Assembly (NCBI GenBank): GCA_051294375.1
Contig: CM119264.1
Location: 15,837,049-15,901,048 of the forward strand
From: Paraspadella gotoi
Lineage: Eukaryota; Animalia; Chaetognatha
DNA: 64,000 nucleotides
Direction of reading: 5' to 3'
Part shown: positions 1,017-57,599 of the stretch, in pieces
Layout of the letters: each line of letters opens with the position of its first letter
Position numbering within the stretch: the first letter of the stretch is position 1
Made by a program: the position numbers and the translations under genes
Notes under the pieces: model-generated
Told to the model about the DNA's origin: nothing
Seen by the model: only the letters and a program-made list of their open reading frames with translations
Databases searched by the model: none

Positions 1017-1271
1017 TGTGGCGGTATATTCACACCGCCTCAGGTCCACCATCGTTCAGCCAAATCCATTGGCTCAGAGGGGGAACACACCATCACAGGC
1101 GTAGTGTTCCATCCATAGTCCTTACGACTTCCCTCTGCGTTGGCAAAGCGAGACCGTCCTAAGGTAACCGCGCCTGTGACTGGATGCGTCACTGAGGGTC
1201 GGAAGCCCCCAAAGCCAACAGTGAGATGCCCCATCCCAATGGGCATCAAAGGCAACCCGGCTGTTGCCATA
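1017..1271 (+). mobile_element. Solo-LTR-like unit with Pol III boxes and twister-like ribozyme (family IV)
   Basis: Termini TGTGG...CCATA. A box TGGCTCAGAGG 1070-1080, B box GTTCCATCC 1106-1114. Second copy at 26165-26417. Confidence 0.75.
1139..1219 (+). ncRNA. Twister ribozyme, type P5 (best match to consensus)
   Basis: GTTGGC aaa GCGA GA CCG TCCTAAGG TAA CCGC GC C TGTGAC tggatgc GTCACT G AGGG TCGG AAGC CCCC aaa GCCAAC. Shows UAA, P2, T2 GC/GC, P3, P4 with loop UNNNAAGC, T1 CCG/CGG and closing P5. Predicted cleavage between 1165 and 1166. Confidence 0.78.
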
Positions 1272-6298: not shown

Positions 6299-7605
6299 AG
6301 AAAAGCCTATTTTGAAATTTTTCGATTTTATAAGGATAGTACTATATATAAATATAGCCTACTGCAAAAATTAAAAAACATATAATTAATTTTTTTTACA
6401 AATTAATGTTCACTGATGGTATGTTGTTCATAATTGACTTTTAGAATTTTCGTATGTAACTTTCACTACGCCTTAATATTTACTAAGGCGGAACAAGGTA
6501 AAAACTAAGAGTTCTGTCATATAAATAACGTTAAAGTATCTCTGTGGGATAACGAAATTTTAAAAAAAATAAAGATTTTATCTATAGTTAATAACATAGA
6601 AGCATTTAAAGTTTATCGTATTACTATAAATCATGAAAATTTTATATTTCAAATTCAGAATTTTTAAAAACGGATTCGGGTAGAGCTTGAAAAAATAAAT
6701 AAAAAATATAATTACAAGAATTCCGAATTTTTATGTTTTATTGGTTAAAATTATCAAAAAATATAAAAATTATGGTATGATGATGATGATGATTTTTAAG
6801 GGTTTTTCCCTTATTTGACCCACTTATCATCGAAATATTGAAAAACGCATTTTACTTTTTGTAGACAACTTTTTATGGGCTATCTGAATCCGTTCTTCAA
6901 AAATAAAATTTTTACAAAAAATTTTTTTCATTGCCTATGCATTTATAAATATTTAAATACTTTAATGTCATACTGTGCTTCACTAGTTATAAATGTGATA
7001 GTAAATATTGATTAAGTATATGATGGACAAATGAATTTTATATGACAGAACTTCTAATGAAAAAATCATAATAAGATCATAATAAATATATTATATCAGT
7101 TTAATACATATTGATGATTCATAGGCCTTAATATACAATAGGAAAGATGATATAAAATGACTTTCGCCAGAACTGCTGCTGGCGCATTTTTGAGCATCAT
7201 TTTTGGGAATCAAGAATGATCAATTTGTTGAGAGAAAATACATTTGCATCTCCTGTAACCAGAGGTTTTGCGAGGAAAGCCTAGTTTTTGCGCAACAATA
7301 AAAATAAATATTGCTTTCTGTACTATTCCAATATTTTTCTTATTTGAAAGATTCCTTTTCCGTTTTTAGTTAGACTTACCCTTACAGTACCTAGATTTAA
7401 AAACTAAATTTTTTCTTTTTCGTATTTTCCATACAGTAAATATTTCAAAAAGCCTTGTTTTTTGGAATCAAATTCCCTATTTTTTTTCGGCCGATAGAAA
7501 AATAAAAATTTCGTCGAATACTGCTAATCCCTATTAAAGGAATTTTTTTCCTCTTCCGGACTCTTGGACTTTCACTAAGTCTACTATTCTTACCTCGCAA
7601 CTTAC

Positions 7606-8606
7606 CCCATGCACCTTGCAATGCTTGAATCTTCTCGGCCCGAAGTCGCTAGAAGCCGAGGAATCCATGTTCATTGAATGATACTCGGCGCCTAACCTCG
7701 TGGGTGGATGCCGCGTACGTTCATGGCTACAGTATTCACTCATTGGCGACGAGAAAGGCGTCGATGGAAGGACATTCGGCGAAACTTGTGACGTATTTAA
7801 GCCTTCAACGACCGATCCGCCCGATCGGTTCTCTATCTGGTTCACAGCCTCTCCACTCCAGAAGCACCATCCCGAATCGTGACTACAGGAGCGAAGACAG
7901 CCGACTCTAGTGACACCAGAGTCTTCCACGCCAGAATCCTCGGGCATTGGGCGACGATGACGAAGACCCTCGCGCGCGGGATCGTCTATCGGGCGAGGGG
8001 CGTCCACCTGCCTGACCCTAATGTTGACTTCGTCGTCTCCATCCCGAAAATCGGAGCGAAGGTCCCTCCTGTCTCGTTCCATCTGCGAAAATGAGGCAGT
8101 GTCGCAGTGGCGCAACATAGAGGCGACGCCGTGCTCGTTGATGTCATCGAGAACGTCTCGCGACGAAGTGGGACGCAGATCGCGAACGGGAGTAGAGCGT
8201 GGCTGGCTAAGTCCCCGCATTACACTGCGTCGACGATTTAGTTCCGAGTTTGTGGACGATGACGAGGGCGAATAATCGAGACGGAAGTCCGTCCCTTTAG
8301 ATCCCGATACGATCTGAGTGTGAATGAAGGCCAGGGAAAATGCCAGTGCTAAGGGAGTCAGGATCTCCGTCATAGTAAAGGCGTCCGGTTCAGCATCAAC
8401 CCTCTCGTCCAAGGCAGTGAGGCCTAAAACGACTACGAATAGACAATAAAGGAAGAGGAAAAAGGCCCAAACGGCGACGGAGAAGTGTTGTCGCCACCAA
8501 CGAAAATAGAGTGGAAAGAGGAGGAAGCGGAGCATTGACTTCTTGGTTAAAGCACCCCAACAAAATTGGGACTTTTGCTTCGGAAAGGGGCTGCCGCGAA
8601 CCAAGT
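7606..8606 (-). CDS. PHTF: PHTF-family gene, coding exon 2
   Basis: Acceptor ttcttcttcag|AC. Encodes DLVRGSPFPKQK...LTKKSMLRFLLFPLYFRWWRQ plus hydrophobic TM segments typical of PHTF. Phase-0 donor GGG|GTAAGT, with an alternative in-frame donor GAG|GTAAGA at 7594. Confidence 0.9.
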
Positions 8607-9886
8607 CTGAAGAAGAAAAAGCAAAAGTAGTATTCAAATCCTTATCGTTCGTAACCATTCATACCGTCGCGGTCGGAATAGGTTTCTTTGCAAAATAAGA
8701 ATTAAAATTACATATCGATTGATACGATGACGATTAATTGATGAAACGATCATGTCGCTTTATTGTTGAATTTAAGGGTTGAACTTAGGCAAAGATATTT
8801 TCTTAAGGTCCGGGATCACTCAATTCAAATTATAATAGCTAAAACCGAGCTCGGATTTCGAAAGGAGAGCTCCTGACGATTCCGAAAATGTATTCACTTT
8901 ACTATTTTTTCAAAGGCGTTATCGCTTTTTCGATTTTTTTGGTACTATATAAAATAAAGAAACCTATTTGAAGAGTTGCAGCCCAAACGGTAAGGCGGTT
9001 TCTCTGAAATTTGGCATGGATTACTTTTAGGTCACAAACTCCAATTCTATGAAAAGATACTTTCAAAATTTGCCTTCCTTCATAGAAAATTTGATTATTT
9101 TAGTCAATTTTTGGATAAATTCCTTGATATCTTTGAAACGAAAAACATTTTTCCAAAAACGCGCTCATAGAATCTCCCCCACCTTTCCTTTCTTGCCCAA
9201 TATATTTTTTTCTTCAAGAAGAGTCCTGTGGTTTGAGCTGCAACTCTTCGTTTTTAACTTCACTTCGTCAAGAAAGTTAAATTCTGTACTCATTACTTTT
9301 GCAAGATTCACCACAACATACACAAGCACGGGATGTGATGATGGAGTTTGTTCAACGCCGATGTCTTAAAAAAATGGCTTACTGTTTTTAATTTTTTTAA
9401 ATTCAGATTTGATTTTTTCTTCAGAGATTTCCTAGAAATAGGGCAACTATTTTATGATATAACATTTATATAAAGTAAAAAGTCAAATTGAAATAAATTC
9501 GATAAGTTTTTTAACTCATAAAACTCATAAAAGCATAAAAACCCATATGAAAAATGTGTAGAGTAGTTTGTTTTAGACTTATTAGTGATACAACTCCAAG
9601 TATGGACTTGTACCAAAGGAAGAATTAAATATAAGAAGTAGAAATTGAGCTTACTGTAAAGAATCAGTTTTAAGTTAAAAATTTGGTTGTAGAAATTTAG
9701 CTTACATTTAAAAAAATATTTTTCTCTTGAAAATCTAGTTTTACGAAGAAAAAAAATTGTTAAAATTTTTATGAACATTTTAGGTAGATTTTTAAAAGTT
9801 TTCGATTATTTTTAATAGAAAACCTCTTACAAGATGTGAGAAAATGATTAAGATACAGTAAATTAAGATTTCTACAATATTAGATT

Positions 9887-12800
9887 AATCTGAGTGAACT
9901 ATTCTGTGAATTCAAGTTGAAGCCTTTTGTTTTCCTTTTGTTAGTCTGGCTAACAAAAGAGGCCTTGCCGCCAACTGAATTATTTTGATTGTTTACTTGT
10001 AAACTGATTGCCCTCAGATTGATCAGACTGATTTTTCTCCTGATGAAATAAACTTGCTTCTACAATTATTTTCACAATGTTTTTACTTAATATTTCAAAG
10101 TAAGAAATACATTAAGTGATAAAGAAAAACCTTTACCCTCAAATCTGATTAAACAACCAATCAAAAATGAAACAATCAATTTGAAATCCAATGTGAGACT
10201 TTCCCTGCGATGAACTGTATCATCTTAGAACTATCACATCACATGTGTCAACTCTATCGGACGCCTCTAATCAACCTCAGCGGCCTTCCGATGACTTACC
10301 ACACCTGGTGAGCCCGACAATGAACAACAAGCCAACCTTCGAACGGGGCAGAGGAGCGACATTACCACTTCCGAGGTAAGACTGGGTGAAGAATTGGAAT
10401 TAAGCGTGATCACCCATTCCGCTCACACTTTTTCCACCTGCCCCATACACCCCAATATCCCGCTCATCTCGACAACGCCGACGAGCCGCAGGCCGACGCC
10501 GCGGCGCCGCAGCTCATCCCCAGCCTTCAGCGAGGACGACGGTCAAAACCAACGTCTTCAGGCCACCTCGACGCTGCTCTAGGTTTCAACGCTCAAAGAG
10601 TCGACGTCGCCTAATTGGAACGGCGACATGGCGACCGACCAACCGACCGACAACGCTGAGAAGAAGGGAACTACGCCACATAAACGACGAATTGCGCGCC
10701 GCACTGACGGCGGCGACTCGCCGCCTCGAGAGAGCGTCAAACACGGAAGCCCGACCTTCCGGAATTCGATTCATCCAACATCGAGATTTGGATTAGAAGA
10801 GTAGAGGCAGCTTACGTCCGCGCCGGGCATCTCCACACATGAAAAACAAATTCGCTTACCTCGAATCAAAAATTTGGATCAAAGTGGATCCCAAAATAAA
10901 ATCAGTTTCTATTCGGTGAAGCGACGGAGAGGCCTGGACCCAGTGTCCTTTCAATACTTAAGGATGAATATGGATTTACTCGGCGCCAACAAGCTACTCA
11001 CCTCCTCGACAACATCGACATCGACGGATCAAGCCGTCAAGGGCTCTGGCACTCTTAGAGGAGAAAACTCGGACTCTCACTCTCGACGACTTACGCAAGG
11101 AAAAATCCTTCAGGAACTGCCGACGGAAATCCGCCGGCAACTCGAGGAGAAGGCCGGAGAACTGACCGCCCGCGACTCTGTCAACTGGCAGATCTGGCAC
11201 TACGACAATAGGTAAACCAAAGATCTGTCAGCCGACTGCACAAGTCAACAACATCGAAGGCAACCATCAGCGCCGCCTACCGTCAGAACGGACGACGACG
11301 ACGACGACGACGACGACGCCGTCAATGCCATCGACCACTCCAAGCGGAAGAAGAGAAATGGAAAAGAGCGCCGGACAAAGTCAAAGAGAGAAACAAAAAA
11401 CTAAGCTTCTCACACTTTGCAGCAAGCATCTAAAATTCGGAGATAACGCCCGATCATGCGAACCGGGCTGCCTCAAAGTACAAAGAACTGCAAAAGCATC
11501 ATGAGGGAAACGGAAGAGGGGGACGCCGTTTGGTGAAACGCCGTCCCCCAGCCAGAATCATTTTCACCAGCAGCGAGCGACCTCCTTTACATCAGGGATT
11601 CAGAGAGCAGAGTGAAATGTTGGTAGACGGCGGCCGCTCCTTCTATCAATCATACCTCCACCCGCGAACAACGCCTGAAAGGACCAAATCCAGAGACAAA
11701 ACTCAGGCGGCGAACGGATCACCTATTAGCTGCTATGGTTCAGTCAACAAAACCGTCACACTCGGGAAAAGGCGATTTGAATACGATTTTCGTCGTCGCA
11801 GATGTCACCCAGCAATATTTTGGGAGCCGATTTCCTTGCAGAGAAACTTTTCTTGCTCCAACCACCGAGACGGCCTGTTAATGGACTTTACAGGATTATT
11901 CGACGATAGCAGCGTCGACATCCTCCGGAGCCACGACTCATGCGAATTTCGTCGATAGGAAAGGCGAGAGATACTATAATTATTAGAATCTTTCCTTCGC
12001 TTTCAACGCCGACATTTGAGCTCAAGGAGCCGAGACATGGAGTGACCCACTCAAATTCCGACAGAAGGCCGACCATGCCAGTCCCGCGCCCGCCGACTTG
12101 ATCCAGAAAAACTGCAGTAGCCAAAAAGGAGCAGAGAAAATGGTTTCCCTAGGCATTCGGGGAAAAGAGAAAATCGGAATGCGTCCTCGCCTCTCCACGT
12201 TAGTAGCGAAACCGGAGGGTTGGCGCTGCTGCGAGGAGACTATCGTTCGACTCAACGCGCAGACGATAGATGACCGCTATCCGGTCAAGCTTACTGACCG
12301 ACTTCAATGGCTCAACTTGAAGGCAAAGACTATCTTTTCAAAGATAGACCTACTTAAGGGCTATCATTCAGATACCGTAAATCCTGATGATGTGAAGAAG
12401 ATGCGGTCATCACCCCCTTTGGGTTGTACGTCTTTTCCCCGCTGCCCTTTTGGGCTAAAAATGCGGTGGCAAGAGGTTGTCCAACGCCTAATGGATGAGA
12501 TACTTGGGGATATCCCTCATACATTTGGTATACCTCGACGACATATTAGTAGCGTCACCGTCGCCACGAGGAACACATACAGGATCTCTCGAGCTGTCTT
12601 CAAGGCACTGGACGGCAGCGGTCTCGTCCGTTGGATACAAAGAAGTGTCTCCTGGGCCAGGAATTCGCTCGAATTCCTCGGTTTTCTCGTTCGACAGGAC
12701 GGGTACGCCCTCTACCGCCGAACGAGTACAGACTCTACGGGGAGACAACGAAGCCCACAACGATAAAGGAGCTCCCAGAGATTCCTCGGATGATCAATTA

Positions 12801-15800
12801 CTCCGTCGATTCATCCCGAAGGTCGCACATCGTTGTACGCCGCTTTATGAGGCACTCAGTGGAAAACCGAAGGACACTCAGATGGACTGACGACTCGAAA
12901 CAGGCCTTTTGAGGCAATAAAAGAAGGCCTGATACAGGCAGCTCTTGCTCCAACCACCCCGAACCGGCGCCGCAATTATTTGCATTACGACGGATGCCTC
13001 CGACCCACGCAGTCGGGGCCAGTGCTCGTGCAGAGGGGACCCAAAGGATGGAGTACCATTGGCATTCTTTTCAGCCAATTACAAAAAAACCCAAAGACTC
13101 CTGGCCCCCATTTTGATCGCGGAGTCTTTTCGGGATTTTGCCGCGCAGTCCAGCATTTCCCGGCATGGATTTGAGGGAAGAAGCTTTTACAATTATACAC
13201 TGACCACAAAGTCGCTCATCTCCGGGCCCTCAAGAAAAAGTCCGAACCTCAAACAGCGCGTCAGAGCTTACAGCTATCGGTAATCGCCGAATTCTCGACC
13301 GACATATCGCTATCTAAAAGGCAAAAGCTATGTCGTTGGCAGACGCCTTCTCGCCCCAACTCGTCGCCAGCAGCTGCCAGCATCATTGCAAACAGCCGAC
13401 AAAACTCCGAATCAAACCGAGAGGTCTCGAACAACCAAATCGACCACACCCGCCCAGGGCCATCGACGGCTGCCGTGCCAGAAAAGCGGAGTGAAAGCGA
13501 TGCCTTACTAACTTAATCAGTTTATTTCCGGGTACGTCCAAGCGTCATAGCTCTTCATTTCTCTCGTTTTTTTGTTTTTCAACGACCGTTACGCGATAGG
13601 TACGTTCGAACGGGAGATGGCCAGAGAGCAGGAGCCTCGACCGACTATCCGAATCTCTTGCGCACTGAATCACATATCGCGAGAACTAAAGGATCTGGGC
13701 CTGAATTTTCTAAGAGTAAAATAGCAACACAAGATCGCAGGGAAGTTAGCAGCTACTCCAGATTTGTCAATGAGTGGACCAGCAAATCAGACCTACTCGT
13801 CCCTTTGCAGCTATTGGCTGACGATTAATAAGGGTGGTCAGACGTCATCAGAGTGGACTTGGCCACCCTGGAGTAGGAGCAACCTGATACGAAAAGCGGT
13901 GTCAGGCAAAATTTCGTACAACCTGGCTCTCTTACCACATTGACATATTTCAGAACTGTCAAACACGTGGGCCGAGAACTGAGTGCATTCGAATGTCAAC
14001 AAGCAACAAGTGACAAGGCACGTAGTTCCCAGAGATTGTGTGAATACAGATCCGCCGCCCATGGAGACTTTCGAGCATAGTCACAGTCTAGACCCCCTCG
14101 TGTAAGATGCGCCACGTAGCTCGAAATAGGATTCAAGCTACCTCTTAACAATCGCGCTTGATCGATTCTCGCCGCTTGGTCCAACAGAAATCGATCCCGT
14201 TTAAAGACACTCTGTACGACAACAGTACTTGCATGCCTCAGCACAGAAATGGATTAGCACATATTTCGCAGTCCCAGCCGTAATCCACAATAGATGCCGC
14301 GGTACTCATGGTTCACTTCGTCTCTATGCGAGATCAATTGACACACAGTGGAAGGAATAAAACACCAGACAATTCCACTTGACTATCACCCTCAGTCTGC
14401 GAATGGGCCTCGTTGAACGGTTTTCACAGTGCGCGCTAAGGAATCTTCTCATGGCATTGGGGAGATACGGGGACAGACCGAGAATTGGTTCTGAAACTGC
14501 CCATGACCCTCTTAGCAGCAAGTGTCAGGACGCACAATAAAGGAGGACATCGGAGCGGCCTCCAGGGCTGCTGACCTCTGGTTTTTGGCGAAGGGAGATC
14601 AGCGTCCCATGCAGCATCTATTGGTAGCGACAGTCAAAACGATGAAGTTATTCTAAGAATCGTCATCGTTCAAAACCACTATCGCAGCCCCGCCGTCGAG
14701 ATTCGCGCGGCTAAACAACCCTTGAAACTACGAGCCAAGCTTCGCATTATCAGTCGACACGATTCAGTGCAACCTCCCGGCTAGCAAACCTGGAGACAGG
14801 GCTCGACATGTTGTGACCGAGAGGAGGGCATCAACCCACCACTGTCCTCCTTACGATGGCCCAATTTCGTTGCGAATGTGAAATATGACGATATTACAGC
14901 AAAGCCGAGAATGGGTATCGTAAGGCCAGGCGTGATCGCTTACATCCTATCGGAAATCAGACGACTGGCGAACGCGGTCGGCACCGGCTAGAAATTATAT
15001 CTAACGTTTTAAAACGGGCCGAGCAAACTACGGGTAAGCAAAGTACACATACCTACGCACACGAGACTTTATCTGCCAAGCGCGGCACTGTAAATGGCCC
15101 CTCTATAACTACTTGTCGACCGGCATCGGCTTATAATGCTGGACAGTATACGACCTAGAACACCCTACAAGTTTCTTCGCCATGCATTAGACTCCAAACG
15201 ACAGAATGCCCGAAGCTCAGCGAGACCAGCACCCACTACATGGCAAGCGTCAGATCGACTTGTCGCGCGAACCGCCCGACGGCTCTTTCCATCCTCCTCC
15301 TCCCCTCTTACTCTCTACTGACCTCGCCACCAAAGCATCAGGCATCTGAATCAAGACACCTAGTCAACACTCGTACCCAACGACTTTGTGCTAGGTGCCG
15401 TCCCCTCCTCCTCACTTCTCTCACATCCATTATTCCCTCCGGGGCCCATCACTCTCCTTCTGCCTTTCGGACTTACTAGGCTCACGCCGTTCTCGCAATT
15501 CGCACCTCAAATCTTACAAGTATCTTAAGAGAAAGCGATCACAAACAACAACAACTTCGCCGAAAGATAAAATGATGGTTACTATTACAGATCCAAGACC
15601 ACGAGGAATTCCCCGGACGTAAAAGGTGATTAAAAGAGAGCTAACCACAACAACAACAAAAACGACAGGACAAAGCAAGGGAAAACAAACCAGAACAACA
15701 ATCGCCTCCAGCTGCATTTGTTATACTTTACCATTATAGTATTAAGAGAATGCTTCGTCACAAGAGAACAAAGAACGACAAAACCATAGGAACAACAAAC

Positions 15801-16578
15801 AAAAATGTAAAACAAACCCCTGAGGTTAACCGCGCCGGAACATTTGGCTATTTGCCTGTTTCTAGCTAATCGCTCCGATTTCTTCTTTGCGCCTGATTTT
15901 TGAAATGTTATATTCTATTCTTGCCATATTTTTTGAAATTTTAGAATGTTGTGAAAGATGTTAATGTTAAAGTCCAGTCAAGATAGATCTTCAAGTTGGT
16001 ATTGATAATGCGTTATATACCCGAATATAAATATTACAGTTTTAAATTATATTTTTACTCGAGATACATCCACTCCCGGTATGGACGACAAACATATTAT
16101 TGAAATATTATTAGCCCATATATTCCAACAGGGGGCTTTGCGGCCAATCTGAGTGAACTATTCTGTGAATTCAAGTTGAAGCCTTTTGTTTTTCTTTTGT
16201 TAGTCTGGCTAACAAAAGAGGCACTTGCTCGCCGCACTGAATTACTTTGTAGTTATATTGTGTTACTTGTATATTACTGATTGACCCTGGCAGTATGATC
16301 AACTGATTTTTCTCCTGATGAAATATACTTGCTTCTACAATTATTTTTCACAATGTTTTTACTTAATATTTTCAAAGTAAGAAATACATTAAGTGATAAA
16401 GAAAAACCTTTACCTCAAATCTGATTCAAACAACCAATCAAAAATGAAACCAATCAATTTGAAATCCAATGTGAGACTTCCCTGCGATGAACGTATGCAT
16501 CTAATTAACTATCAATCATCACGTGTCAACTCTATCGACGCCTCTAATCAAACTCAGCGGCCTTCGCATGAATTACCA
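9887..16578 (+). mobile_element. Ty3/gypsy LTR retrotransposon, CsRN1-clade-like, frameshifted, antisense in PHTF intron 1
   Basis: Direct repeats (LTRs) at about 9887-10303 and 16139-16578. PBS TGGTGAGCCCGAC 10306-10318 (resembles the tRNA-Trp PBS TGGTGACCCCGAC). Gag CHCC motif CSKHLKFGDNARSCEPGC 11418-11471. Protease LVDGG, RT KIDLLKGYH and YLDD (12531-12542), RNase H TTDAS. G-run PPT at about 16131. Confidence 0.93.
11505..11549 (+). promoter_or_regulatory. Candidate -1 ribosomal frameshift signal at the gag-pol junction
   Basis: Slippery heptamer GGGAAAC, 6-nt spacer, then hairpin GGGGGACG-C-CGTTT-GGTG-AAACG-C-CGTCCCCC. Confidence 0.75.
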
Positions 16579-21853: not shown

Positions 21854-23534
21854 TTGCATAATTTAATCAACTTGCATAATTTGGTTAACTGACATAATTT
21901 GGTTAACTGACATAATTGGGTCAACTGACATAATTTGATCAATTAAGATAATTTGGTCAACCGGCATAATTTGGTCAACTGGCATAATTTTATCAACTGG
22001 CCTAATTTGGTCAACTGGCATAATTTGGTCAACAGGCATAATTTGGTCAACTTTAAGAATTTGGTCAACTGGCATATTTTTGTCAATTTGCATAATTTAG
22101 TCAATCAATCAATCAATCAGAGAGAGATAGAGAGAGAGAAACTTTAAAAAATTCAAATAAATGTGTCTTTTGGGTTTCTAATTTGAACTCTTTTCCACTC
22201 CTTTATAAAGCTTTATCACATACTTTCCTACCCACACACAAAATTCAATTTCGATTTATCTATCCAATTTTTAATAAACATAATAATTATGAGTAAATTT
22301 AAGTAAAAATACTTCAAGTAAATATGACTTTTGTTTTTTCCATTTTAACTCATTTCCACTCGCACGATTCCATCGAAACTTTATATCCAGCTCAATCACA
22401 CACTTCCCTACCATCATTTAAAATTTCAAGTCAATTGCCCTATCTACTCATGAGCAATTGGCGTTCAAATAGTGAAATATATTTTTTTGTTTTTTCCATT
22501 TAAACCAATTTCCACTCGCACGATTCCCTCGAAACTTCATATCCATCTCAAGCACACAGTTTCCTACCCACACACAAAATTTCATACCAATCCATCCATC
22601 CAATCACGAGTAATTGGAGTTTTTTGCTAAGGTGTGACGGACGGACGGACGGACAGACAGACGGACGGACGGACATCGTTTTTTTTGCATAATTTATCAT
22701 AATTCGATGTTCTGACATGATATAAGTGTGTGCCCGACAATATTGAGGGGGCGGACCGACGGACCGACAAAGTGAATTATAGAGTCGGGATCTGCTGATA
22801 AGCAGATCCGACTAAAAATAAAAGAGAAAATTTGTTTGTTTTGATAAAACGTAAACAAAACATATTTAATAACTGTCCAGACTCAATTTTAAGCACATCG
22901 ATGATGAGAAGCTGTATATAAATTTTCAGCTTCATACACCCAAATTTAATCATAAAAAAGGCGATCTATAATTTGGAACACCGACGACAACAACGACGAC
23001 GACGCCACTTATGCGCAAAAGCGTTACAATATCGTTACAATATCGTCGCAAACGCTAAGCGATTGCAACGATAAAAAGAGAGAAAAGTTGTTTGTTTTGA
23101 TAAAATGTAAACAAAACATATTTAATAACTGTCCTGACTCAATTTTAAGCACATCGATGATGAGAAGCTGTATATAAATTTTCAGCTTCATACATTCAAA
23201 TTTAATTATAAAAAAGGCGATCTATAATTTGAAACGCCAACGACGACGACAATGACGCGCCACTTATGAGCAATATCGTCGCAAACGCAAAGCGATTGCA
23301 ACGATAAAAAATCTTTAATGTAGTTGGAAAGATTTGAATATTTTAAAATTGACAAAAAGTATTTTCGACATTGGCTTTGAGTGCTGATAAAATGTGATAT
23401 AATAGTTTGATTTAAAAAATAAAGATATCATATTAAACTGTAAGAACTTCTAGATCCAAAGAGTACAGCAAATACATTTTTTTTTTATTTGACAGTACGC
23501 TTGACACTTTGTAATTCACGATTGAGATACGCAC

Positions 23535-26164: not shown

Positions 26165-26417
26165 TATGGCAACAGCCGGGTTGCCTGTGATGGCCATTGG
26201 GATGGGGCATCTCTCACTGTGGGCTTGGGGCCTTCCGACCCTCAGTGACGCTTCCAGTCACTGGCGCGGTTACCCTAGGACGGTCTCGCTTTGCCAACGC
26301 AGAGGAAGTCGTTAGGACTGTGGATGGAACACTACGCCTGGGATGGTGTGTTCCCCTCTGAGCCAATGGTTTTGGCTGACGGATGGTGGACGTGAGCGGT
26401 GTGAATATACCGCCACA
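26165..26417 (-). mobile_element. Second family IV solo-LTR-like unit, in myosin light chain intron 2
   Basis: Reverse-complement copy of 1017-1271, flanked by the 4-bp direct repeat AGGG (26161-26164, 26418-26421). Twister-like fold at 26219-26298 with an altered L4. Confidence 0.75.
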
Positions 26418-34171: not shown

Positions 34172-34775
34172 TAGGGTTAGGCTTAGGAGGAAGGTACTGC
34201 GGAGGACATTAGGGATTAGGGTTGAGGCACCGGAGATGTACGGGAGGCCTGGGCCCGGTTTAGGGTTAGGGTTGGGAGAGAGGCCGCGTGGTTATATATC
34301 AAAGGCGATTAGGGTTAGGGTTGAGGTACGGAGATGTACGGGAGGCCGGGCCTGGGTTAGGGTTAGGGGAGAGGCATGGAGTTGAAGGGAGGCTTGGTTT
34401 AGGGTTGGGGGAGGGACCCATGGTTGATGCATCGAAGGGCGGTTAGGGTTAGGGTTGAGGCACGGAGATGTACGGGAGGCGGGCCTGGGTTAGGTTAGGG
34501 AAGAGGCATGGATTGAACGGGAGGCTTAGTTTAGGGTTAGTGTTGGGAAGGGGCCGTGGTGATGCATCGAAGGCGGTTAGGTTTGAGGCACGGAGTTGAA
34601 CAGAGGGCTTGGTTTAGGGTTGGGGGAGGCCCGTGGTTGATGCAACAAAGGCGGTGTAGGTGTATAGGGTTGAGGCATGGAGATGTACGGGAGGCCGCAG
34701 GCCGGGTTAGGGTTAGGGGAGACAGAGCACAGAGTTGAACGGAGGTTTGTGGTTTAGGGTATGGGTTGGGAGAGG
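34172..34775 (+). repeat. G-rich complex tandem repeat built on TTAGGG-like motifs
   Basis: Recurrent TTAGGGTTAGGGTTGAGG and GGAGATGTACGGGAGGC (34232, 34330, 34464, 34679). Confidence 0.85.
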
Positions 34776-35139
34776 AGCCTGTAGTGATGTTCATCCCCGT
34801 GTTAGCTGCGCTTTTCATTATATTCGCTACTTTTATCACTGGCGAGGTCACCAGTGGGGGGACTGGCGACATCGCAAAGCCCTGGCGATAAATTCGCCAG
34901 GCGATACATCGCTATTTGAATGAACTACAACTTGGGTTATAGAGTAATATTAATTTTTTTAATTTATTCAATTTTTTAAAAAAATATGTAAATTTTTGTT
35001 TGAACAGGTGCTTAATACAAATTTCTTAACCACCTTACTGACTTTCCATGATTACAGTTACAACATTCCGATGCTGCAGCAGCAGCATTTTCAAAGCTTC
35101 TGTCACAGTCATAATTGATATAATATGACTATAGTAGCG

Positions 35140-35601
35140 GTAGTATTTCATACCCCGCTACTCGTCCGAGAATCAGCAGCACCTATGGCGCCGGAGGAGC
35201 ACGAGCTCCTCCCAACCCAAAGGAGTTGGGTTCGCGCCCTACTGATTCACCTAAGTAAAAGCGGGACGGGGCGTCGAACCCACCTGTAGTGACGGACTAC
35301 AGCCCGATCCGACGTTCGGGACCTTGGGTGCAACGGACGGTGAACTGCTCGCGGCATCGTCTTCCACATTGGTGAGCCCACACTAACACGCTGGTACGTT
35401 AATACACCTCTGCCTGGGCATGTTAACCCACCTCTGCCCTCGACCATTGCGTGTGAAGACGGGAGCAGGAATAGGAAGGTCCTCCTAGAGTGCTCGGGCA
35501 CAACGCGTGCATCATTGCCATCACACTTGCGCGGATGTGGGATGCCTTGGGGGGATGTGTAGTATTTCATACCCCGCTACTCGTCCGAGAATCCGCAACA
35601 C
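35140..35601 (+). mobile_element. Non-autonomous TRIM with tRNA-like Pol III boxes and a twister-like ribozyme in its LTR (family II); 3' LTR truncated
   Basis: 5' LTR (T)GTAGT...TTCCACA 35140-35368. PBS TGGTGAGCCC at 35370. PPT GGGGGGA 35549-35555. Second LTR starts TGTAGT at 35558 and repeats about 35-43 nt of the first. A box 35186-35197, B box 35229-35238. Confidence 0.82.
35248..35330 (+). ncRNA. Twister-ribozyme-like motif, type P5 (family II)
   Basis: P5 CACCTAAG/CTTGGGTG, GA-CGG (T1), GAA, AC (T2), P3 TGTAGT/ACTACA, P4 CCCGA/TCGGG with loop TCCG-AC-GT. Confidence 0.65.
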
Positions 35602-38019: not shown

Positions 38020-38251
38020 TGAAGAGACAGTAATTATTGATAAGTGTTAATGACAGAACCGTTCAATATAAGCAGTCCCGAGCTTCGGATCAGGCTGTAA
38101 CACCATAGTTACAGGCGGGTTAAGCCACCCCGTCCCTCTTAACTGCCAGACGACCACCGGGCTAGAACCCGGACCTTTTGGGTTGGAGGCGAATGACTTC
38201 CTCCGGCACCAATGGCGCGGATGAACGGTTGGTGGATTTTAGGCCACCATA
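38020..38251 (-). mobile_element. Family I solo-LTR-like unit
   Basis: 232-bp reverse copy of 57368-57599 with 5-bp TSD ACAAT (38015-38019, 38252-38256). Twister-like fold at 38071-38147. Confidence 0.78.
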
Positions 38252-50700: not shown

Positions 50701-50710
50701 TTTTTTTGCA

Positions 50711-50779
50711 TCAGCAGGGCGCGAACCCGAGTCCTTTGATTGGAGGTGCTCGCGCTACCTCCGAGGCTCCCGGACGAGT
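50711..50779 (-). repeat. Fragment of a family II-like LTR (tRNA-like head only)
   Basis: Reverse complement ctcgtccg...cggagg..gcgcgagcacctccaatcaaagga.tcgggttcgcgccct.ctga aligns with 35160-35245. Confidence 0.65.
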
Positions 50780-51575: not shown

Positions 51576-52311
51576 AAATTGGTACAACCAATATAAAAAT
51601 TATCCATTCATTTAATAAATAAGCTATCTTGCCCCTGACTTTGGACAGGCTTTGGTGGTTTAAAGCCTCCATCACTCTTACAAGATAATGACATAGCAGG
51701 TCCATGCAAGCTTTCAATCAAGACTCTCTCACAATCTCGTTTATTCACTCCCAGAGTACCTGGCTTTTTTATCAATGAAGTGGAAAATATTTCAAAGAAT
51801 GTTTCAATTGTATGAAAAGACCACTCCCTTAAGTATTAGTAATTTTTTATACTTGCATAATTTTTTTAACTTACATAATTTTTTTAACTTGCAGCATTTT
51901 TTCGACTTTTAACTATCTAGTTATCGAGTTTCATTAGTGAGGCAGTGAGGAAGTTGAAATGTGTGTCCATTTTCTTTGTTTCATATCGATTAAAATATTT
52001 TTTGTTTGAATTTCCATTTAATTATGATTTACTGCAATATGCAAATTAGATTATGGTAATTTTCTTTGATAGTAAAAAAAGGCGAGATCACTATACTTTT
52101 AAGATTTTTTTTTTTCTATTTAAACTCATTTGCACTCGCACGATTCATCGAAACTTTATATCCAACTCGGTAACACACTTCCCTACCCACACACAAAATT
52201 TCATTCCAATCCATCCATCCAATCACGAGTAATTGGAGTTTTTTGCTAAGGTGGGACGGACAGACAGACGGGCATAATTTATTTTTGCATAATTTATCAT
52301 AATTCGACATT

Positions 52312-52618
52312 TGTGGATAAGGCGCTACGTGGGCTGAAAATGACTGTCCGTAACTTCTATAACCCCCTCTAGCAGCCATGGAAAGGGTCCCTGGGCTTGG
52401 AACCAGGCTTGAGGGTTTGCCATGCCCCCAAGGCGGCTTACAGCCGTCCTCACGGCGTGAGGCTCACGCTTCCCGCAGGGTAGGTACCGGGTTGGGATTG
52501 AACCCGGTACCCAGTGGTCATGAGCTGATGGCTTTACTCAATGAGCCACCGGGTCACAACTGAAAGTGTCATGCTTCTAGGCGAGGTGAACCTAGGCATT
52601 AGGCAATGCCCGACTACA
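52312..52618 (-). mobile_element. Solo-LTR-like unit with tRNA-Met-like head and twister-like motif (family III), inserted in a HINE
   Basis: Termini TGTAG...CCACA on the minus strand, 4-bp TSD CATT (52308-52311, 52619-52622). A box TGGCTCATTGAG, loop CTCATGA, B box GGTTCAATCC. GA-GGA...TAA GCC GC C, P3, P4 CCTGG/CCAGG with loop TTCCAAGC (about 52385-52474). Confidence 0.78.
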
Positions 52619-54499: not shown

Positions 54500-55400
54500 T
54501 ATGGTGAACTTAAATCCACCAACCGTTCATCAGCAGCCATTGATGCAGGCTCTGGTTAAAATTTGGCATATTGTGTGCCAGATTTGGCATAATTTCAGAC
54601 CGTTTAGCCAGTAAAAAAATGTTCTGGCATATAGCATACAATCTGGCATATTCAAAATGTGAAAAAAATTTTAGGTTTTTCGATCTACAGCATTGGACAG
54701 AGTATGAAAAACACTTCCTTTGGCAATGTAAATCTGTATTAAATATGTTATTTGCTTATTTTATTATTTATTTCTTTGATAACAATAACAATAAAGCCAA
54801 AGTATTTGGTTAATACCGATTTTCCTCTGAGATGCTTGTGTAGTTCAGTAATACTAGTAATAGCATGTTAAAGCAACTTTCCAAGAGCAAAATACTATGA
54901 CGTCGGTTGGTTGGTCTGTTTGAAAATTACTGCTGCAAAACACCTTTTACAGGACTTGACCGGTTATATGGCTCATCGCTTAAGCATTAAGAATTAATCA
55001 ATTCACAAAAAATCTCATTTTTTTGGTCTTTTTGTTTTTATCTGTCTTAATAATTTTACATAGGCTCTAATAATAATCATTTTTCTGTACTCTTGTAATA
55101 GTTTTGCATTAAATTAGCTAAAATATAATTTGGCATAATATTTAGCATACTAAAAAAAAAACTAACCATTTTTAGCATAATTTAGGGCGCTATCTGGCAC
55201 ACGTTTTTTCTGCAGAGTTTTAACCAGAGGATGCAGGAGGTAAGTCATTCGCCTCCAAAACCAAAGGTCCGGGGTTCTAGCCCGGTGGTCGCATAGCAGT
55301 TAAGAGGGACGGGGCTCTTAACCCGCCTGTAACACAGTGTTACAGCCTGATTCGAAGCTCGGTTCAGTCACTAACTCATAGCAATTATTACCGTCTCTTA
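54500..55400 (+). mobile_element. Family I solo-LTR-like unit interrupted by a MITE
   Basis: 5-bp TSD AGTAC (54495-54499, 55401-55405). The halves 54500-54549 and 55238-55400 rejoin into a family I unit. The 3' strand of twister P5 is deleted. Confidence 0.78.
54550..55229. mobile_element. MITE with 8-bp TSD (680 bp)
   Basis: TIR CTCTGGTTAAAA/TTTTAACCAGAG and TSD GATGCAGG (54542-54549, 55230-55237). Confidence 0.85.
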
Positions 55401-57367: not shown

Positions 57368-57599
57368 TATGGTGGACCAAAATCCACCAACCGTTCATTA
57401 GCGGCCATTGGTGCCGGAGGCAAGTCATTCGCCTCCCAACCCAAAGGTCCGGGGTTCTAGCCCGGTAGTCGCCTAGCAGTTAAAAGGGACGGGGCGCTTA
57501 ACCCGCCTGTAACATGGTGTTACAGCCTGATCCGAAGCTCAGGGACTGCTTATATTGAACTGTTCTGTCATTAACACAATAATTATCACTGTCTCTTCA
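57368..57599 (+). mobile_element. Solo-LTR-like unit with tRNA-Gly-like head and twister-like motif (family I)
   Basis: Termini TATGG...TTCA, flanking AACT repeat. A box 57409-57420, B box 57453-57462. Twister-like fold 57475-57550 (P5 AGCAGT/ACTGCT, P3 TGTAAC/GTTACA, P4 CCTGA/TCAGG, loop TCCGAAGC). Confidence 0.78.

Follow-up and report, generated by a model that had tools for sequence, protein, structure and literature searches.

A covarying twister-P5 fold in probable Helenus-type LTRs of the chaetognath Paraspadella gotoi: a candidate animal LTR retrozyme

Most twister ribozymes found in genomes have no assigned job. Retrozymes have been described as LTR-type elements with hammerheads in plants and as non-LTR elements in animals (PMC4918200, PMC7229834); in the plant LTR retrozymes the hammerhead cuts in both LTRs and circular RNA has been shown (Cervera et al. 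2016, PMC4918200), and the RNA of animal retrozymes is circularised by RtcB (PMC7229834). A further group of short LTR elements, the Helenus TRIMp3 elements, has LTRs that mostly end soon after a tRNA-like part (supplement of PMC10886601); in the accessible text of the paper that describes them (Kojima 2024, PMC10886601), the terms 'twister' and 'self-cleav' are absent and retrozymes are named only as another group. As for the twister itself, copies without P1 cut at a near wild-type rate (PMC5408937), and a screen of natural twisters saw no dependence of activity on the length of P1 or P2 (PMC11662667). Our literature search found no twister described in an LTR or TRIM, with subscription papers, Repbase notes and bioRxiv supplements lying outside its coverage.

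The window analysed here, a single 64-kb stretch of the P. gotoi genome, is AT-rich, repeat-rich eukaryotic sequence and contains eight copies of a type-P5 twister with a P1 of 1-2 bp, which fall into five families (I-V). Elsewhere in the window lie an exon of a PHTF1/2-family gene (7534-8658, minus strand; Pfam PF12129, E 1e-24) and a very abundant repeat (22329-22823 and many further copies) that holds a GACG/GACA microsatellite and internal arrays of 156 bp and 18 bp; this repeat resembles Helitron-derived DINE-type elements. The twisters, with the parts of the copy at 1139, are as follows.

1139..1219, plus strand: family I twister, predicted cut 1165/1166 (type-P5 fold, by descriptor and segmentation)
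1139-1144/1214-1219, plus strand: P5 of this family I copy
1148-1151, 1152-1153 and 1154-1156, plus strand: its P2', GA and T1' (CCG)
1157-1164, plus strand: its P1 region, followed by U1165^A1166 A1167
1168-1171 and 1172-1173, plus strand: its P2 and T2 (GC)
1195-1198/1207-1210, plus strand: its P4, next to P3, which is closed by C1174...G1194
1199-1206, plus strand: its L4, UCGGAAGC
57475-57550, plus strand: family II twister, predicted cut 57499/57500
38140, minus strand: family II twister, intact, predicted cut 38122/38121 (segmentation)
55305-55363, plus strand: family II twister, decayed; one G.U in T1 of this third family II copy
35248-35330, plus strand: family III twister, predicted cut 35276/35277
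52474..52380, minus strand: family IV twister, predicted cut 52440/52439
51625..51687, minus strand: family V twister-P5 without P3 extension, predicted cut 51662/51661 (Rfam Twister-P5, 25.2 bits)

Across families, T1 reads CCG/CGG, CGG/CCG, GGA/UCC or UGG/CCA and T2 reads GC/GC or AC/GU, and the pairs of both pseudoknots, three in T1 and two in T2, are all Watson-Crick in six of the eight copies; in the second family I copy (26290, minus strand) T2 is broken by G.G. The conserved core, made up of a GA that precedes T1', the A at the cut site, U...AA within L4 and C-G in T2, is found in seven of the eight copies, the exception being the window copy of family III, which departs from it at 35276 and 35313. 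P4 has 3-5 bp, P2 2-3 bp and P5 6-9 bp (six copies scored); in family IV, P5 lies 4 nt from P4 and has 6 bp by eye. The family I copy at 1139 has T.T as its outer P3 pair (1175/1193) and a P2 that opens with C.A, and family V has a C-AAA-G junction in place of the long P3. Two standard P1 pairs are possible in all eight copies, their letters changing together, and a 2-nt loop is left in most copies of families II-V. An earlier note on this DNA had given the strand order at 1139-1219 and the letters of T1, T2 and P3 at 57475, 35248 and 52385; the order is correct with every element in its place, and the letters agree with the segmented copies. That note also counted four families, thereby overlooking family V, which is the best Rfam match, and described P1 as reduced and P2 as shortened in three families, which is supported: P1 has 1-2 bp, and P2 is a pair short in families II-V, with two pairs left and one nucleotide fewer than in the Rfam model. 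Its proposal of a new minimal twister variant is a modest one and not the main finding, since P1 is known to be dispensable (PMC5408937, PMC11662667) and a short P1 is not in itself new. We consider it very probable that the twister-P5 fold is real and probable that the twister is active, with cleavage predicted.

Statistical support for the fold was obtained with a descriptor that left T1 and T2 unconstrained, and 60 block shuffles served as the control. Among the seven matches in the window, five had all five pseudoknot pairs in Watson-Crick form, one (the decayed family II copy) had four and one had two, whereas none of 46 matches in the shuffles had all five and three had four; two copies escaped this descriptor, the other family I copy and that of family IV, in the latter case on account of the distance between P5 and P4. 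A descriptor used before it, in which the pseudoknots were obligatory, matched five loci in the window, against one match in 20 shuffles, and missed family I. The first T1 pair is C-G, G-C or U-A across families, the second C-G or G-C and the third G-C or A-U, and the first T2 pair is G-C or A-U. When pairs were counted in five aligned copies of families II-IV, 79 of 80 cells were paired and seven of 16 pairs had changed on both sides; slid controls gave 16-55%, from sequences too few and too closely related for a probability to be derived. MAFFT, when run without guidance, put families I and V out of register, and both were excluded from this count and from the covariance model. A covariance model built from families II-IV recovered family V, absent from the model, at E 6e-5, and did not recover family I at E up to 5; support for family I is thus the descriptor together with a weak Rfam match (twister-P1, 16.4 bits at 1171-1214, under the cut-off of 67.2), because the II-IV model misses it. 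No copy reaches the cut-off of Rfam Twister-P5 (RF02684, gathering 37.6), family V scoring 25.2 bits and family IV 16.8.

The twister-P5 fold is under selection, with both pseudoknots covarying, a conclusion supported by the eight copies in the window. The earlier note had claimed this for four diverged families, and the compensatory changes in T1 and T2 and the comparison with shuffles uphold it; all four sites are present, but family II (57475) is homologous to family III (35248), at 71% over 118 nt, and no other LTR pair among families I-IV aligns, so that its four families amount to three independent lineages. In public contigs, family I varies at a frequency of at least 3% at only five sites within 1139-1219, three of them in loops and two changing towards pairing. 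At both core departures of the window copy of family III, 99% of contig depth (run X1) has the canonical letter, so these departures are private to a few copies. Runs X10 and X11, which come from other organisms, gave no matching contigs for family I or family III, a result that does not prove absence. Selection during spread is indicated because compensatory pseudoknot changes occur across LTR families that do not align and because the bulk of copies has canonical core letters. The competing hairpin that the earlier note had suggested for families I-III is indeed predicted, and in all eight copies: every minimum-energy fold differs from the twister, with competing hairpins including some over the cut site, and in families I-III these folds lie 7.5-10.5 kcal/mol below partial twister structures, that is, those without P1, P2 and both pseudoknots. 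The alternative hairpins, however, have no common register across families.

The repeats that carry the fold in families I, II and IV have the following parts.

1017..1271, plus strand: family I solo LTR of 255 bp with TG...TA at its ends and CCTT/CCCT as flanks (near-exact duplication)
1070..1114, plus strand: tRNA-like boxes A (1070-1080) and B (1106-1114, degenerate), a predicted Pol III promoter of putative function (motif scan; spacing short)
26165..26417, minus strand: the other solo LTR of family I, with CCCT as an exact 4-bp duplication
57368..57599, plus strand: family II solo LTR with TA...CA ends, AACT duplicated exactly, and A/B boxes that start at 57409
38020..38251, minus strand: family II solo LTR, flanks TTGT/(A)TTGT (near-exact)
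54512..55400, plus strand: family II LTR split by the element 54550-55231, right end approximate
52312..52618, minus strand: family IV solo LTR, TGTAG...CCACA, 307 bp, exact duplication AATG
52548 (A box start) and 52504..52494 (B box), minus strand: boxes of family IV, by eye

We are highly confident that families I-IV are the LTRs of Helenus-type miniature retrotransposons. A 4-bp target duplication is exact in three of the five whole solo copies and near-exact in the other two; the LTRs run from TG to CA in family IV and in family III (from the start of its 3' LTR and the end of its 5' LTR), from TG to TA in family I and from TA to CA in family II. The ends of family IV were fixed by an empty-site alignment to four uninterrupted copies of the host repeat, and those of family I coincide, in three runs, with sharp depth edges and loose contig ends (1016/1017 and 1270-1272). 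Summed depth over family I is 0.5-2.2 million inside the LTR, against 373 in the left flank bin (run X1, 6601 contigs), which implies a very large family, summed contig depth being no copy number. In each of families I-IV, tRNA-like A and B boxes, degenerate in family I, stand within the LTR, shortly 5' of the ribozyme, and five of the 11 matches of the A/B-box motif scan fall in these LTRs. ARAGORN called no true tRNA in the tRNA-like stretches, and Pol III transcription, which is predicted for the P. gotoi elements, is unvalidated for Helenus as well (PMC10886601). A run of four T is absent from the LTRs of families I-III, an absence that is not significant (shuffle probability 0.43-0.84), and is present in that of family IV, 3' of the ribozyme. 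The twister lies inside the LTR in families I-IV; its slot is the same in all four, and families II and III are the only ones among them whose LTRs align. A classical tRNA-SINE reading of these repeats was ruled out, the tRNA-like part being 40-70 nt within elements that have LTR ends and 4-bp duplications. No LTR ends or tRNA-like A/B boxes were recognised around the family V twister. The element that splits one family II LTR (54550-55231) has terminal inverted repeats of 12 bp and a duplication of 8 bp, GATGCAGG; by its hallmarks it is hAT-like. It was the LTR nature of the repeats, likely what gives the ribozyme a job, that the earlier note overlooked.

Families I, II and IV are present in the window as solo LTRs only; a non-coding two-LTR layout of less than 1 kb with a primer-binding site (the PBS) plus a polypurine tract (the PPT) is found there for family III only. 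Its parts, and a second LTR element of the window, are listed below.

35133..35368, plus strand: family III 5' LTR, 236 bp, ends CCACA, A/B boxes from 35186
35370..35379, plus strand: primer-binding site TGGTGAGCCC, tRNA-Trp-like, one base after the 5' LTR
35369..35557, plus strand: family III internal region, 189 nt, non-coding, with the polypurine tract 35549-35557 at its end
35558..35601, plus strand: family III 3' LTR, which opens with TGTAG and breaks off (truncation) after 44 bp, short of its ribozyme
9887..16578, plus strand: degenerate Gypsy-type LTR retrotransposon, candidate helper family, LTR ends TACCA(CA) (LTR alignment)

Among the twister-bearing families, the family III 3' LTR is the sole 3' LTR in the window. 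In run X1, depth over family III is 148-399 thousand in the LTR, 9-19 thousand in the internal region and 0.3-1.1 thousand in the flank; the LTR edges 35134 and 35368 have 42 and 41 loose contig ends, and contigs span both LTR-internal junctions. The Gypsy element has LTRs of about 430 bp, a PBS at 10306, a purine tract before 16140 and broken reading frames, of which the RT frame matches the Ty3 RT (E 1e-4); it gave no Pfam match, and no twister was found in it. Its PBS and that at 35370 are identical in 10 of 10 nt, each starting one base past the LTR end. A 10-nt match is weak by itself (two matches with at most one mismatch occurred in 16 of 100 shuffles), and the sharing carries weight because of its position after both LTR ends; the tRNA-Trp type of the PBS was assigned by comparison with Fig. 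S2 of PMC10886601, not with the tRNAs of this genome. Around and beyond the family III element, a tandem array of 132-134-bp units with TTAGGG (34266-34581) lies 550 bp upstream, and at 50707-50763 on the minus strand there is a tRNA-like head that is 81% similar to the family III head and is not followed by a twister. Run X9, in contrast to runs X1 and X5, shows 5-10 times as much depth over the family III head (35190-35249) as over the remaining LTR; contig depth is no measure of RNA level.

The P. gotoi elements resemble the Helenus TRIMp3 elements in being short, non-coding LTR elements with A and B boxes inside the LTR, a PBS, a PPT and many solo LTRs, and they share with animal Helenus the 4-bp duplications and a PBS in common with Gypsy; unlike published Helenus, they have a twister behind the tRNA-like part (PMC10886601). 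The plant LTR retrozymes likewise have a ribozyme in the LTR of a non-autonomous element, together with a PBS, a PPT, 4-bp duplications, Gypsy-like ends and solo LTRs; the differences are the animal host, a twister-P5 instead of a type III hammerhead, a tRNA-like internal promoter, a Trp-like instead of a Met PBS and a predicted monomer of about 425 nt instead of about 700 (PMC4918200). Animal non-LTR retrozymes and the Schistosoma Sm-alpha repeats are also ribozyme-bearing, non-autonomous animal repeats, Sm-alpha having a Pol III promoter, but they are tandem, carry type I hammerheads and are without LTR, PBS or PPT (PMC7229834, PMC6765202, bioRxiv 10.64898/2026.07.22.740005). The T-variant twisters of Perere-3 share a weak or absent P1 and a tie to animal retrotransposition; those are P1-type and belong to an autonomous RTE LINE, where they lie at the 5' end, whereas ours are internal to an LTR (Liu et al. 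2021, PMC8501958). With the type-P5 twister RF02684 the fold has in common the strand order, two pseudoknots, GA, N^AA, L4 and an open P5 (PMC5408937); it differs in a P1 of 1-2 bp, a P2 one pair short in families II-V, a T1 other than GGG/CCC and a score below the cut-off, and its long P3 resembles that of Rfam twister-P1.

A parallel case appears to exist among published Helenus elements. The LTRs of Helenus-2_SyJa and Helenus-2_SyUm from Synergus wasps (DataS1 of PMC10886601) contain CTGATGAG...GAAAC with three helices and complementary loops, as judged by eye. This motif is apparently a complete type III hammerhead, and it lies 3' of the tRNA-like part, in the slot that the twister holds in P. 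gotoi; both wasp elements use a tRNA-Trp PBS, and the hammerhead is unremarked in the accessible text of their description (PMC10886601). Six L4 motif terms gave six matches in the accessible Helenus supplement, none of them twister-like (PMC10886601), and a metagenome scan with the family II/III pattern gave 110 matches, of which the one that passed the T2 and P4 filters was not twister-like. A viral scan for short-P1 P5 twisters with GGG/CCC yielded 63 loci; the three that passed the P2 and P4 filters were all rejected, being better described as ordinary twisters with a full P1. Two type-P1 twisters stand head-to-tail at about 100-200 in the phage contigs L031 and L054.

We propose, by analogy with the plant elements and with a probability of roughly 0.6, that the twister-bearing Helenus-type LTRs work as an LTR retrozyme, with one twister cut per LTR, a circular unit and copying by Gypsy enzymes. 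Pol III would start at the tRNA-like boxes of the 5' LTR and, there being no T4 run in the LTRs of families I-III, would read on into the 3' LTR. The twister would then cut at N^AA in both LTRs, releasing a monomer of about 425 nt in family III, with a 5'-OH, a cyclic phosphate and no terminal redundancy. With the cut placed inside a fold of the P5 type, the ends of the monomer would be held together: each would keep half of the ribozyme, and the halves could re-pair through P5, P2 and T1 and so be presented to an RtcB-type ligase. The cut-to-cut unit would have no terminal repeat, which is required for strand transfer; plant LTR retrozymes overcome this lack by circularisation (PMC4918200). 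Gypsy RT and integrase, with a tRNA-Trp-like primer, may then copy the circle without strand transfer, and such copying could yield solo LTRs directly, which fits the approximately 15- to 20-fold excess of LTR over core depth; recombination explains this excess too. The occupation of one slot by two ribozyme classes, a twister here and a putative hammerhead in wasp Helenus, suggests that cutting in this slot is what is selected.

The main rival to this proposal, which we consider unlikely, grants that the twister is active and regards it as a 3'-end maker that replaces the T-tract terminator of Helenus; it would cut mainly the 3' LTR, leaving a linear RNA with a terminal repeat of about 100 nt and ordinary strand transfer. 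Most published Helenus LTRs do have a T-run soon after the tRNA-like part, in the very slot that is held here by the ribozyme (PMC10886601), and the lack of T4 in the LTRs of families I-III suits such a role. The two LTR copies, however, do not differ in sequence and their fold is a local one, which means that a special device is needed to cut only one of them; alternative folding that slows the ribozyme copy of the 5' LTR might be that device, and competing hairpins are predicted over the cut site, but plant elements of like layout cut twice and circularise (PMC4918200). A good deal less probable is that the twister is a passenger without a role in mobility, captured together with a tRNA-headed SINE or the 5' end of a LINE. 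An origin of Helenus by insertion of a SINE into a TRIM LTR has been proposed (PMC10886601), and twisters head RTE elements such as Perere-3 (PMC8501958); those RTE twisters, however, are P1-type and lie at the 5' end, whereas the twisters here are P5-type and internal (PMC8501958), and the compensatory pseudoknot changes across non-aligning LTR families, with a canonical core in the bulk of copies, amount to selection. It is very improbable that no twister forms and that the G+C-rich stems are simple hairpins for packaging or RT recognition, since the sub-threshold Rfam scores, the differing minimum-energy folds and the miss of family I by the II-IV model are countered by full pseudoknot complementarity in five of seven window matches against none of 46 in shuffles, by GA, N^AA and U...AA conserved in seven of eight copies and by alternative hairpins in no single register.

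The LTR retrozyme reading predicts an exact cut site and a circle size. An LTR element of an animal whose LTR carries a twister would cross the divide between plant and animal retrozymes and link Helenus to the retrozymes. Diverged twisters in very high-copy repeats fall below the Rfam cut-off, and some 'tRNA-SINE-like' repeats would be ribozyme-bearing solo LTRs. In our estimate the chances are even that animals have true LTR retrozymes, a Helenus lineage with a captured tRNA promoter and an exchangeable ribozyme, in which circles of about 400 nt would be copied by Gypsy enzymes and solo LTRs would come straight from the circle. If true, the P. gotoi elements would be the first retrozymes built on a twister, and P5-type twisters would have their first role in an animal.
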